Origin: an uncultured Acidobacteriota bacterium
GTDB lineage: Bacteria; Acidobacteriota; Blastocatellia; RBC074
Assembly: GCA_963796275.1 (NCBI GenBank)
Contig: CAWCKY010000003.1
Span: 1,312,001 to 1,376,000, forward strand
Reading direction: 5' to 3'
DNA: 64,000 nucleotides
Positions 3,804-63,681 of the stretch are shown here, one piece after another. Made by a program: the position numbers and the translations under genes. Each line of letters starts with the position of its first letter. Within the stretch, counting starts at the first letter, position 1. Under the pieces are notes generated by a model, which did not search any database, was not told where the DNA came from, and worked only from the letters and a program-made list of their open reading frames with translations.

Positions 3804-4409
3804 TTACATGCTCTCGGCAAAATTCCTGAGCAACTTCAATCCGGCCGACTGGCTCTTTTCCGGGTGAAACTGCACCCCGAGAATACTCCCGCGCCCGCAG
3901 ATTGAAGCGAAGCGGCTGTCGTATTCCGTCTCTCCGATTACGCACGATCGATCGCTCGTTTCGACGTAATATGAATGAACAAAATAGAAGAAGGGCTGAT
4001 CCGGCAGGCCGGAGAAGGCCGGATGGTTTTGTTTAAAGTCTACCTGATTCCAACCGACATGCGGGATGCGTACGCCATCGGGAAATCTTACGACGCGGCC
4101 CGGCAGCAATCCCAGTCCTCGATGGACTCCGAATTCGTGCCCTTCATCGAACATCATCTGAAGGCCCACACAGAGTCCGATGATCGGTTTACCCGCCATG
4201 GCAGCCTCGATCACCAATCGATCGAAACCGAGTTTGCGCAGGCTGTCCATCGCATAACCGAATGCGCCGACTCCGAGCAATACGAGCTTATCGGCTTCGC
4301 GCAATACTCGTTCATCGCGCGTTACGATCGCCGGAATGCCTTGAGATGTAAAAGCTTTTTCGACGCTCCTGAGGTTTCCGACTCCATAATCAATGATTGC
4401 GATTTTCAG
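3804..4409 (-). CDS. hisH: Imidazole glycerol phosphate synthase glutaminase subunit
   Basis: [16 protein letters not shown]-terminus upstream of the listed ORF, GLCVGLQ, FYFVHSY, QFHPEKS; apparent CTG start overlapping the hisB stop. Confidence 0.93.
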
Positions 4410-4993
4410 ATAACTCCTTTCGTCGACATCACGCCTTCGATCCGTTCGTCGACGCGTATCGCTTGCGAGAGTGCGCGGGCAACCGATTTGAAGATGGCTT
4501 CGATGATGTGATGTTGATTGCGCCCATAAAAGAGTTCAACGTGCAGATTGCATTTGCAATGTTCGGCGAACGAATGCCAGAAGTGTTCTGCCAGTTCGAC
4601 CGAGAAGGTCCCGACCTTGTCCCGCGTGTTTTGTACGTGGTAGACCAGATAGGAGCGTCCCGATAGATCAACCACCGCGCGCGCCAGCGTTTCGTCCATG
4701 GGCACATAGGCTACGCCGTAACGCACGATGCCTGCTTTGTCGCCCAGGGCTTGAGCGAAGGCTTTGCCAAGGCTGATAGCGGTGTCTTCAACCGAATGGT
4801 GATCATCGATTTTGATGTCGCCCCTGCAGGTAATTTCAAGATCGAACAAGCCGTGGCGCGCGAAGAGTTCAAGCATATGATCGAGAAACGGCACATCCGT
4901 GTCTATGCGGTTTACGCCAGTGCCATCAAGATCCAGCACCATCTGCACATCGGTTTCTTTCGTTTTTCGTTTGATTTCCGCTTTTCGACTCAT
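4406..4993 (-). CDS. hisB: Imidazoleglycerol-phosphate dehydratase
   Basis: [33 protein letters not shown]. Confidence 0.97.
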
Positions 4994-6060
4994 CGCTCAC
5001 AAATCTGCTTCAGCGCTGCAATCAGCGCATCGTTTTCATTCGGGGTGCCGACGGTGATCCGTACGTACTCAGAAAGCATCGGCGCTTTGCTCACATCACG
5101 GATCAGAATACCCCGGGTAAGAAGTTCTTCAAAGAGCTCTTTCGGAGGGATCCCAGTCCTCACGGCAAAGAAATTGGCGGCGGAGGGAACGGGCGTCAGC
5201 CCTTTGATCTGCTTCAATTCGGAAAAAAGCCGCTCGCTCTCGCGGCGCATCGCCTCGACCTGAGGCATCAGTAGTTCGAGATTTTCAAGCGCTACCTCAG
5301 CGGCAATCCTCGAAAAGAAATTAAGACTGTATGGCATCCTAGTTTTGTTGAATTCGCGAATGAGTTCCGGCCTCGCCAGACAATAGCCGACCCTGAGCCC
5401 GCCCATCGCCATTGCTTTTGAAAAAGTCCGCAGGATGACCAGATTTTTGTACTGTTGCAACAGAGGTATGAAATCCTCTCCGCCTATCTCCTGATATGCC
5501 TGGTCGACTATCACCAGACCCGCTGTATTTCGCAGCAGAGAGGCCAGGTCGCGCGATTGGATGACGCAACCGGTCGGATTGTTGGGCGAGCAGATGATGC
5601 ACAAATCGGCCTTGCTCGTGACGATCTTGCTGGCCAGGCGCGGGATATTGAAGGTCAGATCTTCGTTAAGCGGAACAGGCAGAATCTCGCCGCCGGCTAC
5701 CTCGATGACCTGGCGATAGACTGAAAATGTAGGCTCGGGTAGGAGCACGCGCACCCCTTTTTCAACGGTCGCGTTGATTATCGATTGAATCATTTCATTC
5801 GAGCCATTACCAGCCATCACGCCGTCCGGAATCCATCCGGTATAATCAGCGAGTTTATTAAGCAGGGGAGTCGGTACGAACTCTGGATACCGCGCCCAAT
5901 CGTGTTCCATAGCCCGGCGCAAAACTTCCTGTTTAATTGCGACTGGCATCCCGAATGGGTTTTCGTTCTGATTGACCTTGATCGGCGCCTCCACCGGTGC
6001 GAGCGTGTAAGCGGTAATGGCGCGAACATTTGGTCTTATTTTGTCGAGTGGAGAAAACAT
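4990..6060 (-). CDS. hisC: Histidinol-phosphate aminotransferase
   Basis: [24 protein letters not shown]; likely start ATG 6060 ([10 protein letters not shown]). Confidence 0.94.
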
Positions 6061-6061
6061 T

Positions 6062-6080
6062 TTAGTTGATAGTTGATAGT
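6062..6080. repeat. Heptameric arm (TAGTTGA units), inverted partner of 6519-6537
   Basis: TTAGTTGATAGTTGATAGT is the exact reverse complement of 6519-6537. Confidence 0.9.
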
Positions 6081-6125
6081 GAGAATTCAGTTGTATGAGT
6101 AATAAATAAGTCAGAGCACTCCTGA

Positions 6126-6477
6126 CTAAATTCTTTCTTTGGATGATTTTATTATCTCGGTCAATAGCCTCGAAACTTCTTCGCATTCGGTATGAAGAGA
6201 AACAAAGGTCGATTCATCGAGATAGTTTGTATCCCAAAGTAGTTCGAGCCAGTACGCAGTCTCGGTACTTTCTTTTAAAGCAATACACATTTTATGGATA
6301 AAATCTGCCTTCGACTCCGCTTGCATAGCCTCTCTTATGTTGGCTCCTACCGAAGTCCCTGATTTGAGTATTTGTTTGCTGAGGACATACTCCTTTCTCT
6401 GTTCGGAAGTCGCTTGTAAAGTTCTACGATCTTAATAGCGAGTAAATAAGATTTAGATTTAATTGGACTTTTTTCAT
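6126..6477 (-). pseudogene. Four-helix-bundle protein (TIGR02436 / 23S rRNA IVP / bAvd-like), one base missing near 6410 (pseudogene or sequencing error)
   Basis: MKKSPIKSKSYLLAIKIVELYKR | EQRKEYVLSKQILKSGTSVGANIREAMQAESKADFIHKMCIALKESTETAYWLELL; RBS GAGGAGGAGG; AT-richer than flanks. Confidence 0.88.
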
Positions 6478-6518
6478 TGTGCCTCCTCCTCGGTTTGAGG
6501 GGTGGCCGACAATCGGTA

Positions 6519-6537
6519 ACTATCAACTATCAACTAA
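6519..6537. repeat. Heptameric arm (AACTATC units) overlapping the hisD stop
   Basis: ACTATCAACTATCAACTAA; encodes hisD terminal LVDS*. Confidence 0.9.
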
Positions 6538-7824
6538 CCTGATTGTTGTCGAGCGCGCGTGCGCATCGAATCCTTCGGCGCGGGCGAGCCGATCGATGGA
6601 CTGTGCCGTGCGGTTCAACTCAGCCTGCGTGTAACGAATGATGCTCGTCCGTTTCAGAAAATCATAAACGCCGAGGGCCGATGAGAACCGCGCCGTGCCG
6701 CCGGTCGGCAGGACGTGGTTGGTTCCGGCGAAATAATCTCCCACGGATTCCGGGGAATATGGGCCGATAAAGATCGCGCCGGCGTTGCGTAATTTGGCGG
6801 CAATCGCCTCGCTGTCGGCCGTCATGACTTCTATATGTTCAGGCGCCAGGCTGTCGGCGAGCACACACGCGTCGGCCAACGACTCGACGACGATCAACGC
6901 GCCGAACTCTGCCAGCGATCGTTCGATGATCTCGCGACGCGATAGGGATTTAGTCTGCTTAATGATTTCACGATGGACTTCGACTGCTAATTTTATGCTG
7001 GTAGTGATCAATATGGCAGCGGCATCTTCCGAATGTTCGGCTTGCGAAAGGAGATCCGCCGCAACGAAATCAGCCCTCGCCGTGTCATCGGCGATGATGA
7101 CTATCTCGCTCGGACCCGCGATGGAGTCGATATCTACGGCGCCGAATACGAGTTTTTTGGCGGCAGCGACATATTGATTTCCCGGCCCGACGATCTTGTC
7201 CACCCGCGGGATCGTCTCTGTGCCGCAGGCGAGTGCGGCGATCGCCTGCGCGCCGCCGATTGTGTAGACTTCGTAGATCTCGAGCTCTTTGAGCATAGCG
7301 GCGATGACGGGGTTTTTACTGAATTGTGCCGGCGGGGTGACCACGATGATGCGTTCGACTCCTGCAACCTGCGCCGGGACGGCGTTCATCATCACAGTCG
7401 AAGGGTATGCGGCGCTTCCGCCGGGTACATATAATCCGACCGTCTCCAGCGGTCGAATGCGCTGGCCGAGGCGCACGCCGTTAGCCCCCTCGATCTCCCA
7501 ATCACGCAGTAGTTGCCGCTCGTGGAAGTAACGGATGTTCGAAATGGCCTCGCGCATCGCTTCGATGAGTCCTTGTTCGACCTGGGCGGATAGTTCTTCG
7601 ATCAACTCTTGATCGACGCGCAACGACTTGGCTGTCACCGCAACTCCGTCAAAACGGGCGGTATACTCGATTAAGGCTTGGTCGCCGCGCGTGGCGACAT
7701 CGCGAACGATGGCTTCTGCCTGAGCCAGAGTTTCGTGGTTCAAGCCTGACCCGCGGCTCAGGATGCGTTGTATTTTTTCGTGATCACCGGGGCGAGAACC
7801 GAGCAGTTTGATGATTTCGATCAT
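6523..7824 (-). CDS. hisD: Histidinol dehydrogenase
   Basis: GLYVPGG, GGAQAIAALA, GPGNQYV, AGPSE, QAEH, PEH, GDYFAGTNHVLPT. Confidence 0.97.
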   Translation of the reverse strand: MIEIIKLLGSRPGDHEKIQRILSRGSGLNHETLAQAEAIVRDVATRGDQALIEYTARFDGVAVTAKSLRVDQELIEELSAQVEQGLIEAMREAISNIRYFHERQLLRDWEIEGANGVRLGQRIRPLETVGLYVPGGSAAYPSTVMMNAVPAQVAGVERIIVVTPPAQFSKNPVIAAMLKELEIYEVYTIGGAQAIAALACGTETIPRVDKIVGPGNQYVAAAKKLVFGAVDIDSIAGPSEIVIIADDTARADFVAADLLSQAEHSEDAAAILITTSIKLAVEVHREIIKQTKSLSRREIIERSLAEFGALIVVESLADACVLADSLAPEHIEVMTADSEAIAAKLRNAGAIFIGPYSPESVGDYFAGTNHVLPTGGTARFSSALGVYDFLKRTSIIRYTQAELNRTAQSIDRLARAEGFDAHARSTTIRLVDS

Positions 7825-13110: not shown

Positions 13111-14206
13111 ATGACTGTTAGCACATTGTTTAAGCCAGAGAATCTTCTCAATTTGTTATTGATCTTCGTTCCGACTGCCGTTGTGCTCGAATTGACTCAT
13201 GCCAATCCGATAGCAATTTTCATCACCTCAGCGCTCGCGATAATCCCGCTGGCCGGATGGATGGGACGAGCCACCGAACATCTGGCTGAAAAGCTGGGTC
13301 AGGGAATTGGCGGCTTGCTCAACGCCACTTTTGGCAATGCCGCTGAGTTGATCATCGCTATGATGGCTCTGAGGAGAGGGTTATTCGATGTAGTCAAAGC
13401 CTCGATTACCGGCTCGATCATCGGAAATGTCCTGCTCGTTCTCGGTCTGGCCATTGTCCTGGGCGGGGTGAAATATCCGAAGCAGGTTTTCAACCGAACG
13501 GCGGCGACGCTCGGGTCGACGCTGCTGGTGTTGTCGGCTATCGGACTTCTCATGCCCGCCGTATTCCATCTTCTGGTGAAAGATAAACCCGGAGTTCACG
13601 AACAGGACCTCAGCCTGGAGATCGCCGTCGTACTGTTCATCACCTATATCCTGAGCCTAATCTTCACCCTCCGCACCCATCATCATCTATACTCCGGAGG
13701 CGTCGAATCCGTCGAGGGGCATACGGCTAGCACGACGGGAGGCTGGAGCAAGCCGCGATCGGTTATCGTCCTGTTGATAGCGACGGGCCTGGTGGCATTG
13801 ATGAGCGAATTTCTGGTGGGAGCGGTCGAAACGACTTCGGAGGCTTTAGGTCTGACCGAAGTCTTCGTCGGTGTTATTCTGGTCGCTATCATCGGTAATG
13901 CGGCCGAACATTCAACCGCTGTACTGGTGGCGATGAAGGATAAGATGGAATCTGGCGCTCAACATCGCCATCGGGTCGAGCATGCAGATAGCGCTTTTCG
14001 TTGCTCCCGTCCTGGTATTCATCAGTTACCTTTTTGGTAAGCCGATGGACCTGCTCTTTACGACCCTCGAAGTCGTGACCGTCGCCGTTTCAGTTGTGAT
14101 CGTCTCTCTTATCGCGCAGGATGGAGAAACTAACTGGATGGAGGGCGTTTTGCTATTGGCTGTCTATACGATTCTTGGGTTTACTTTTTATATGCTTCCG
14201 GTTTGA
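13111..14206 (+). CDS. cax: Ca2+/H+ antiporter (CAX/ChaA); extra base near 13950
   Basis: [13 protein letters not shown] and GNAAEH repeats; C-terminus ([11 protein letters not shown]...DGETNWMEG) in shifted frame. Confidence 0.9.
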
Positions 14207-17158: not shown

Positions 17159-17264
17159 CCATAACATTTATCATTTATCATTGTTCATTTATCATTTGTC
17201 ATTGAAAAACTCGGGCCCGGTTTTTCAATGACAAATGACAAATGAACAATGATAAATGTTATGG
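17159..17264. repeat. Near-perfect ~106-bp palindrome of TCATTTR heptamers between convergent genes
   Basis: Arms are reverse complements except for one extra ATTTATC unit and one mismatch. Confidence 0.9.
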
Positions 17265-18550: not shown

Positions 18551-19534
18551 TTATCTCGCCAGATCGATTTGTGGATCGATCGATTTGGCGGGAGATTCCT
18601 TGCTAGAGGATTCTTCAGGAGAAGGTTGCGCAGGGGTAGTGGGTTCGACCGGAATGATCTCGACGACCGCCAGCCCCTCTTTCAATCGATCGAGCTCCTT
18701 CTCGAGATTATTGAGAGCAGCTCTGGCGGCGGCCTGGTGCGCGCCCTTGATCGTCGTGCCTTCGCCGGTGGCGAGACAGTAACCGTTGACTCGCAGTTCG
18801 ACCTGAAAGACGCGCTTATGATCGGGTCCGAGGCTTTCGACGATGGCATATTGAGGGGTGGGCAGCCCATAGGATTGGAGTCGTTCCTGAAGGGCGGTCT
18901 TATAGTCTGTGCCCGTCAGGTTCTGTGGATCGATCTCGATGAATGTCGAGGCGAACTCGCGGCGGATGAAATGCTTAGCCGCTTCGATCCCGCCATCGAG
19001 ATATATCGCCGCAATCAGGGCTTCGTAAGCATCGACCTGGAGCGCCATCTTGCTGCGGCCGCCGGTCTTCTCCTCGCCGCGGTTGAGCAACAGGTAGCTG
19101 CCAAGCCTCAAGCGGGCTGCGTGTTTTTGGAGATTTACCGCGCTGACTGCATATGCGCGCATCTTTGAGAGCGTGCCCTCAGTGTGCGTGGGGTGAAGCT
19201 CGAGCAGCCAGGAGCTGATCAGAAACTCGAGCACGGCGTCGCCGAGGAATTCCAACGCCTCGTTGTGCAACGGTCGCGGGTCCGGCTGTTCATTCGCGAA
19301 TGACCGATGCGTCAGAGCGCGACGCAGAAAGGCGCGATCGCGAAATCTATACTCTATCGCGCTCTCCAGTTGAGCCAACATACCTTCGAAGGCGCCAAGG
19401 AAAGAGATACCCCCTTCGACCAGCGTCGCGGTCTCATGTTCCTTCGGCTCTTCGGATAACTGCTCAGTTAACGTATCAACCTTATTTTCGATTGAATTGT
19501 CGCCCACAACTCTGAGTGCAGTGAAAGCCAGCAC
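18551..19534 (-). CDS. rnc: Ribonuclease III (start uncertain)
   Basis: [33 protein letters not shown], ds[11 protein letters not shown]...GPDH. Confidence 0.95.
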
Positions 19535-29325: not shown

Positions 29326-29416
29326 AAAATAGTTTTTAGTTTTTAGTTGAGCATCTCGATCGGCAACTAAAACGACTAAAACTGAAAACTGAAAACTGAA
29401 AACTGAAAACTATTTT
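29326..29416. repeat. Heptameric palindrome (TAGTTTT / AAAACTG) with TCTCGATC loop
   Basis: AAAATAGTTTT... // (AAAACTG)x4 AAAACTATTTT; related copy at 57482-57543. Confidence 0.85.
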
Positions 29417-50685: not shown

Positions 50686-50766
50686 ATAATTGATAATTGA
50701 TAATTCGTATACACTCGGGCAATAATCTTTGCGAATTATCAATTATTCATTATTCATTATCCATTA
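50686..50766. repeat. Heptameric palindrome (ATAATTG / CAATTAT) filling the glgC-plsC gap
   Basis: Perfect 15-bp core ATAATTGATAATTCG (50693) / CGAATTATCAATTAT (50732), extended by TCATTAT units. Confidence 0.88.
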
Positions 50767-63553: not shown

Positions 63554-63653
63554 CATTGTTCATCGTTCATTGTTAATTTTACAATTTGTCATTTTTGTTG
63601 AACTCCATTTCTTCAATGACAAATCTAAAATGACAAATGAACGATGAACAATG
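63554..63653. repeat. Heptameric palindrome (TCATTGT / ACAATGA family)
   Basis: Perfect 18-bp outer arms CATTGTTCATCGTTCATT / AATGAACGATGAACAATG; same family as 17159-17264. Confidence 0.88.
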
Positions 63654-63681
63654 AATCTGCTCCGTCACTCTGCGCTTCTGC

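Follow-up and report, generated by a model that had tools for sequence, protein, structure and literature searches.

The cassette between hisD and hisC

The window, that is, the whole stretch of 64,000 nucleotides that was analysed, belongs to the genome of an uncultured Acidobacteriota bacterium. In its histidine operon a four-helix-bundle gene lies between hisD and hisC, and the features concerned are:

6523..7824, minus strand: hisD, the upstream host gene (TIGR00069, 532 bits)
6519..6537, minus strand: 5' arm, G/T-rich, of TAGTTGA words, which provides the final hisD codons and stop
6497..6506, minus strand: anti-Shine-Dalgarno (anti-SD) stretch, predicted to pair over the ribosome-binding site of the cassette gene; in this copy only
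6482..6491, minus strand: Shine-Dalgarno (SD) sequence GAGGAGGAGG of the four-helix-bundle gene, assigned from sequence
6126..6477, minus strand: four-helix-bundle gene (TIGR02436/PF05635), about 117 aa, with two -1 frameshifts in the assembly
6109..6127, minus strand: small hairpin past the stop of the cassette gene, a weak terminator-like match
6062..6080, minus strand: 3' arm, A/C-rich, of TCAACTA words, which ends 1 base 5' of the hisC ATG; without structure when unpaired
4990..6060, minus strand: hisC, the downstream host gene, without SD (TIGR01141, 318 bits)

The two 19-base arms are exact reverse complements of each other. Read on the minus strand, the first contains TTA GTT GAT AGT TGA, which is the end of hisD (LVDS*, with the stop at 6523-6525), and the second arm stands immediately before the hisC ATG at 6060, upstream of which an SD-like word is absent. 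The cassette gene extends from an ATG at 6477 to a stop at 6126-6128, and the cassette has 39% GC, compared with 54% in the window. Neither a transposase in the cassette nor a target duplication was seen. An earlier, sequence-only reading of this DNA had described the exact arms, their overlap with the end of hisD and approach to hisC, the AT-rich gene with its own ribosome-binding site and the lack of a visible transposase or target duplication; recomputation of both arms, the coordinates and the composition, and re-inspection of the cassette, gave the same picture. Matches to the 14-mer number 5 against 0.23 expected, and the arms are not explained by chance. No Rfam match was found in 5900-6700 and no promoter-like site in 5950-6650; terminator-like matches near the cassette (2 found, 0.9 expected) are not significant.

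The frame of the cassette gene is broken near 6468 and near 6407, at which the sequence-only reading had merely hinted by mentioning a repaired ORF. Both frameshifts are probably errors of long-read assembly, because contigs from a related strain (run X1) have one additional base at each of them and other apparent indels occur in the assembly; over the piece 6301-6536 these contigs differ at 30 letters in about 240. Recent decay of the cassette gene may alternatively be their source. Of the 6792 rough gene calls in the 7-contig assembly, 199 run more than 12 nt into a neighbour on the same strand. A hisH-like gene (3804-4400) and a calcium/proton-exchanger-like gene (13111-14206), both named by eye, also look frameshifted, probably through further assembly indels. 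Contigs of run X2 end at both arms with matching TAATTGA-type extensions, leaving the gene uncovered at 85% likeness. These arm-ending contigs, and two short arm-to-arm joins in runs X3 and X5, were not used as proof of an empty allele, as the joins may derive from other copies of the repeat.

The four-helix-bundle protein

The in-frame 93-aa piece of the product scores 99.6 bits against TIGR02436 (cut-off 24) and 90.2 bits against PF05635 (cut-off 33.8), so the family membership proposed by the sequence-only reading stands. This piece also matches PDB 2RLD by sequence (E 1.7e-28). A single-sequence structure model, which gave pLDDT 53, was replaced by a model of a close intact relative, L134 (pLDDT 97), in which four long helices match the solved S23-family fold. 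The latter model aligns with BT_0352 (2RLD, five chains) at TM 0.96 and 63% identity, with Xcc0516 (2GSC) at TM 0.80, and with the diversity-generating retroelement (DGR) protein Avd (4DWL) at TM 0.71, E 0.18 and 11% identity. Of the two family ties named earlier, the one to 23S rRNA intervening sequences holds, and the one to bAvd holds at the level of the fold only. Avd is described as a positively charged pentamer that acts with reverse transcriptase on RNA (PMC6182149); its likeness to the cassette protein is one of fold alone, and the cassette, with hisD and hisC as neighbours, contains no reverse transcriptase or other DGR parts. The protein has no recognised enzymatic motif. In unsaturated pairs (at least 72% identity) dN/dS is 0.03-0.19, and the protein is under purifying selection.

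The hisD-hisC junction in relatives

The sequence-only reading had suggested a comparison of this junction among relatives, and presence/absence variation was seen. Fifty-seven loci were compared (from the window's genome, G000, and 56 family genomes); hisD is adjacent to hisC in 44 and not adjacent within the fetched span in 13. The 44 adjacent junctions comprise 22 direct junctions, 6 empty hairpins, all of other 7- or 9-base words, 4 cassettes and 12 other arrangements. The cassette is present in G000, G004, G031 and G066, which represent four genera, and all three states (filled, empty hairpin and direct) occur within genus g12. In many direct junctions the hisD stop lies 0-6 nt from an SD-less hisC ATG, so the lack of an SD predates the cassette. 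The arm begins just past the natural hisD stop in G066 and replaces the last hisD codons in the other three; relatives without an arm end hisD in ...IRYE*. No target duplication was seen by eye when filled and direct junctions were compared; the insertions are old. Empty hairpins of 9-base words are found at this junction in L005, L011, L181, L185 and L020; G018, a genome in which no TIGR02436 gene was found, has one. In L002 (from the congener G002) another, unrelated gene of about 170 codons occupies the junction, without arms.

Heptamer hairpins throughout the genome

The genome of the window (9.46 Mb; genes were called with a simple in-house caller and are rough, above all in their starts) contains 761 exact arrays of period 7; the control periods 5, 8, 10 and 11 give 64-132. 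When the rule is relaxed, 968 arrays are counted, and for 646 of them an inverted partner lies no more than 600 nt away; with the search shifted by 5 kb the figure is 25. The paired arrays merge into 352 hairpin elements, 259 of them in co-directional, 67 in convergent and 23 in divergent gaps and 3 inside genes; divergent gaps are depleted (23/349 against 27% expected from called gene pairs, p 1e-9). Period-7 arrays are therefore strongly over-represented, with 3/352 elements in genes, as in the intergenic heptamer repeats of other bacteria. As in REP systems, there are many extragenic palindromes close behind stop codons. The first arm starts within -30 to +15 nt of a stop in 203 of the 259 co-directional elements, whereas in 87 the end of the second arm is no more than 15 nt from a start. 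Proximity to the stop (15 nt or less) persists in long gaps (16/36 against 1.2 expected), and 41 of the 67 convergent elements abut both stops. From arm to start the median distance is 20 nt. An SD of their own is present for 69% of the genes that begin 9-30 nt past an arm, but for none of the 66 that begin 8 nt or less from one, where the arm itself fills the SD position.

The words of the first arm fall into the families AGTTTTY (141 elements), TARTTGA (86), CATTT (41) and GGTWGTC (20), with 61 others and 3 of reversed polarity. Gene-less hairpins with the same words as the gene-carrying forms are scattered through the genome. Four are present in the window, where the sequence-only reading had suspected such empty forms:

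17165..17258: empty hairpin of the CATTT word family, between convergent genes
29330..29412: empty hairpin of the AGTTTTY word family (z -5.8)
50686..50766: empty hairpin of the TARTTGA word family, which extends from a stop codon and ends 3 nt short of the following ATG
63554..63655: empty hairpin of the CATTT word family

The loops of empty elements form families with common cores (GATCGAGAC in 19/292, ATTGTTGCC in 18/292), which indicates that these elements were copied whole and did not arise singly; the loop motifs have no strand bias relative to the transcript. Empty loops as relics of the gene were considered and rejected (21 matches against 14 for shuffled queries, the best hits being residual arm words). 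All four TIGR02436 genes of the genome have arms, drawn from three of the four main word families. Elements of more than 260 nt number 28; a TIGR02436 gene is enclosed in 3 of them and a REP-like palindrome in 15, and no other protein family was seen to be repeatedly enclosed; GxxExxY, an alternative cargo, has no representative in this genome. The REP-like motif has 46 matches, of which 37 lie within 250 nt of an array, and a REP-like palindrome of about 200 nt is nested in heptamer hairpins, for example at C4:1113449-1113912 and C6:938654-939003. None of the 9 Y1_Tnp genes is within 500 nt of a heptamer array, one of them (C4:611677) has the REP-like motif 159 nt away, and no mobilising enzyme linked to the elements was found. 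At C6:764469-764786 the 3' end of a four-helix-bundle gene and its arm are tandemly duplicated downstream.

Arms, layouts and movement in the gene family

TIGR02436 matches were found in 55 of 60 family genomes. Flanks were compared for 99 loci, namely the top-scoring 90 of about 280 matches, nine named loci and L014, with L039 dropped for want of an HMM hit. Inverted arms scoring at least 14 are present in 89 of the 99 (76 of period 7, 9 of period 8, 2 of period 9 and 2 of period 10), and the armed loci cover seven phyla beyond the host family, plasmid loci included. In the first 39 loci, 36 are armed, against 98/1482 with swapped flanks and 1/73 with shifted flanks. Together with the four armed genes of this genome and the variable junction, this supports the suggestion of the sequence-only reading that an element which also exists in empty form is represented here by a copy with its gene; the periodic inverted repeats for which it had proposed to test the flanks of other four-helix-bundle genes are there in most of the loci compared. 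Named armed loci are from Bacteroidota, Nitrospirota and Patescibacteria; two weak gammaproteobacterial matches have no arms. Heptamer arms flank 8/8 plasmid loci examined of 31 records (Bacillota, Bacteroidota, Cyanobacteriota and Spirochaetota), and the family occurs in 2 records of a phage collection.

Elements sit just after stop codons, and the gene nearly always has the sense of the host operon (64 of 67 co-directional loci; of 82 tried, 5 were convergent, 3 divergent and 7 uncallable). The unit is found at different sites in related genomes: among pairs compared at both flanks, 14/26 at 80-90% identity and 4/16 at 90% identity or more are at different sites, three of these last four including one disrupted copy. 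Close homologues at different sites indicate that gene and arrays move as a unit, slowly. On an Anabaena cylindrica plasmid (L203), cas1 and cas2 are separated by an arm-flanked four-helix-bundle gene in antisense orientation, and at L204 another lies 5' of xisH/xisI.

A search with the G004 protein yielded 27 more loci, 22 of them without an upstream arm. In most of the loci lacking an upstream arm the gene is followed by a C-rich array, a loop and a G-rich array, so that it stands before a hairpin rather than within one. Of 125 pooled loci, 4 have short flanks; in 113 of the 121 scorable loci an array lies within 200 nt downstream of the gene. The partner of this array is upstream of the gene in 83, downstream in 24 (6 of which are nested hairpins in arm-gene-arm cassettes), on both sides in 2 and on neither in 4. 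The two layouts may be permutations of one circle; loss of one arm and insertion of an empty hairpin would account equally well for the gene before the hairpin. In the sub-clade L130-L157 a complete hairpin, reversed in polarity, follows the gene, and L149 and the plasmid locus L206 have hairpins on both sides.

Agreement between repeat word and protein clade

The repeat word tracks the clade of the protein, not the host. In the protein tree (105 columns, many forks unresolved) words group by clade, word length (7 or 8) follows the clades, and one clade has mostly 8-base words. Among pairs from different genera and sites, which include kin and are not independent, words agree within one base in 75/200 at 60% identity or more, compared with 9/2658 below 40%. 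The nearest neighbour has the same word in 33 of 92 cases (shuffle maximum 11), and divergent copies within one genome never share it (0/59). The proteins most like that of the window (L134, L133 and L109, from three other genera) all have TARTTGA arrays. Gene and word are inherited as one unit, and such co-inheritance could explain the link without binding.

The TARTTGA word is present in 10 of 61 genomes, with 191 matches in the window's genome and 0 in either congener. The 8-mer word is present in 8 of 61; the 8-mer clade, found in 12 genomes, occurs in 6 of these 8. G048 has both this word and this clade, and its three genus mates have neither. Only one gene was found in G015, and 9 of the 11 heptamer hairpins sampled there are similar to its word. 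Hairpin density shows no trend with gene number (60 sampled stretches, 11 genomes), with 8 hairpins in 369 kb where no gene was found, 15 in 220 kb with one gene and 21 in 600 kb with several.

Predicted RNA structure and translation signals

The cassette transcript is predicted to fold with z = -4.1 and an arm pairing probability of 0.95. The SD of the cassette gene is predicted to be paired with probability 0.998, against means of 0.40 in 29 other leaders and 0.51 in 239 host genes, and the anti-SD lies 17-26 nt past the hisD stop. Its GCCACC motif was rejected as a family signal (6/89 leaders, 2.7 expected) and is specific to this copy. The 3' arm and the hisC start are predicted to be unstructured once freed. 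Because the stem takes in the hisD stop, it would be opened by a ribosome that terminates there. Across stems, G-U exceeds A-C slightly (222:179, p 0.036; per element 82:67), a weak sign of selection at the RNA level. Copying of the arms from each other was also considered, with weak support at best: the own partner scores 22.4 and other arms of the same word 21.1, and off-consensus arm positions are paired in 133/210 versus 106/192.

Comparison with known systems

The closest described counterpart is the intervening sequence in helix 45 of Coxiella burnetii 23S rRNA, which carries S23p and has a 28-bp stem, GACAGAT heptamers and an RNase III cut at the first repeat (PMC4990558). It shares with the cassette the protein family, a stem of terminal inverted repeats (predicted here), heptamers in tandem within the 5' arm, a size of about 430-470 nt and a patchy distribution. 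GACAGAT is also the word of L044. The cassette differs in lying between cistrons of an mRNA and not in 23S rRNA, and the 23S gene of this genome (3000 nt) has no gene-sized insert. S23p is reported to decay (PMC4990558), whereas purifying selection acts on the cassette gene, which also has a strong SD. Hundreds of empty copies are a further difference, and cleavage here is proposed by analogy; the sole RNase III match in the genome (PF00636) is in the window, at 18551-19534.

Intergenic repeats of the heptamer type include STRR-like ones. Published heptamers include GGGAATC in Xanthomonas and GGGGA(C/T)T in Nostoc; inverted pairs occur near stops in Xanthomonas, with 70 in X. campestris (PMC4692102). 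In Beggiatoaceae, TAACTGA arrays precede SD-less starts, and a repeat-binding protein was suggested as the mobile unit (PMC4679880). The elements described here share with these accounts the period-7 arrays, the inverted pairs, a G-rich arm soon after stops, an A/C-rich arm before SD-less starts and depletion between divergent genes. The main text of PMC4692102 does not contain the word "helix", nor that of PMC4679880 "helix bundle" or "S23", and no cognate gene is named in these main texts. Here, unlike in these accounts, word families have matching protein clades, with a cognate gene for three of the four main families in this genome.

In REP/REPIN-RAYT systems, many palindromes lie after stops and a few cognate genes are flanked by inverted copies of their own repeats. 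RAYT is an HUH transposase. The cognate gene here instead encodes a non-enzymatic helical bundle, the arms are tandem word arrays, and the Y1_Tnp genes are unflanked. The element thus resembles both an rRNA intervening sequence and a REP system, yet lacks the defining feature of each. No literature that joins the four-helix-bundle family to heptamer repeats outside rRNA was found, mainly among open-access main texts; the separate parts are already published.

Interpretation

The reading that we favour, to which we give about an even chance, is that of a small element that moves slowly. Its RNA stem would be cut between cistrons, where a cut does no harm, and its pentameric protein would recognise its own word. 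The element would consist of the four-helix-bundle gene and of a short word arrayed in mirror image. Once transcribed, the arms would form a long stem that RNase III could cleave, as in the Coxiella 23S rRNA. Since a cut at a cistron boundary would cost the host little, the element would act as an intervening sequence of mRNA, excised without re-ligation. More tentatively, the pentamer might bind its own word array as a specificity factor that keeps and spreads the arrays, the catalytic step perhaps being provided in trans. A ribosome completing hisD would open the stem and the anti-SD hairpin, freeing both the ribosome-binding site of the cassette gene and the A/C-rich hisC leader. Several findings count against this reading: two of the four TIGR02436 copies in the genome are antisense to their operons, words occur without the cognate clade having been found (48 TARTTGA matches in G040, and the 8-mer in G006 and G032), G005 has heptamer hairpins and no gene found, hairpin density shows no trend with the number of genes, and no linked mobilising enzyme was found. 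A wider proposal is possible, though the chances are against it. It would make the elements an undescribed, transposase-free mobile class, in which each pentamer would single out its own word of 7 to 10 bases, much as Avd holds DGR RNA for its reverse transcriptase, and would drive the cassette and hundreds of gene-less hairpins in after stops through an RNA or circular intermediate. The two layouts would then be one circle opened at two places, and the 23S intervening sequences with S23p and the heptamer repeats would be its two footprints.

The elements could instead be domesticated, the protein being a mobile RNA-binding regulator that controls its own gene, and the hairpins cis sites that stabilise the mRNA upstream or gate the following gene's translation. 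This is close to the idea, expressed in PMC4679880, of a repeat-binding protein as a mobile unit. Purifying selection, long retention at the same site, the hisD-hisC copy in four genera, the persistence close to stops even in long gaps and the depletion in divergent gaps would all fit it. Such sites would hardly be expected to turn over as fast as the TARTTGA word has done among the congeners, to be replaced at one junction by unrelated 7- or 9-mer hairpins or by nothing, or to exist as several words together in one genome, and domestication is judged fairly unlikely. That the hairpins are REP-like and spread by an unrelated host process, with the gene as cargo and its product unrelated to the words, is unlikely. 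The genomes with hairpins and no gene found, the REP-like palindromes nested in hairpins and the protein's lack of a recognised enzymatic motif speak for such a process; the gene is hardly ever free of an array, no other family is repeatedly enclosed in the long elements, and word length tracks protein clades.

The sequence-only reading had proposed that the stem loops out the cassette and sets the hisD end beside the SD-less hisC start; ribosomes would then re-initiate across the base of the stem. The arms do pair in the predicted fold, the ancestral junction is tight, and genes starting close to an arm lack an SD. The stop is within the stem, however, which must melt for termination, and the layout of the family requires no downstream start: stops are favoured over starts, most genes somewhat further past an arm are preceded by an SD, 67 elements occupy convergent gaps, and about 20 loci have the gene outside the hairpin. 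As a general function, coupling of hisD to hisC was therefore not borne out and is very unlikely, and at this locus unmasking of the cassette SD or of hisC, as modelled, is the more plausible. Chance or an assembly artefact is hardly conceivable and already refuted: indel errors do affect the assembly, including the cassette gene, but the same cassette occupies the same junction in three other genomes and is partly present in independent contigs, and period-7 arrays far outnumber those of control periods.

That gene and word travel together links two old puzzles, the role of the S23p/four-helix-bundle family and the origin of the abundant intergenic heptamer repeats of bacteria. A repeat-binding protein was sought by MacGregor in 2015 (PMC4679880), and the match of clade to word nominates a candidate, for which a preference of each protein for its own word would be expected, so that controls are built in. 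If the stem is cut as it is in rRNA, hundreds of cistron boundaries per genome would be processing sites that derive from a selfish element.
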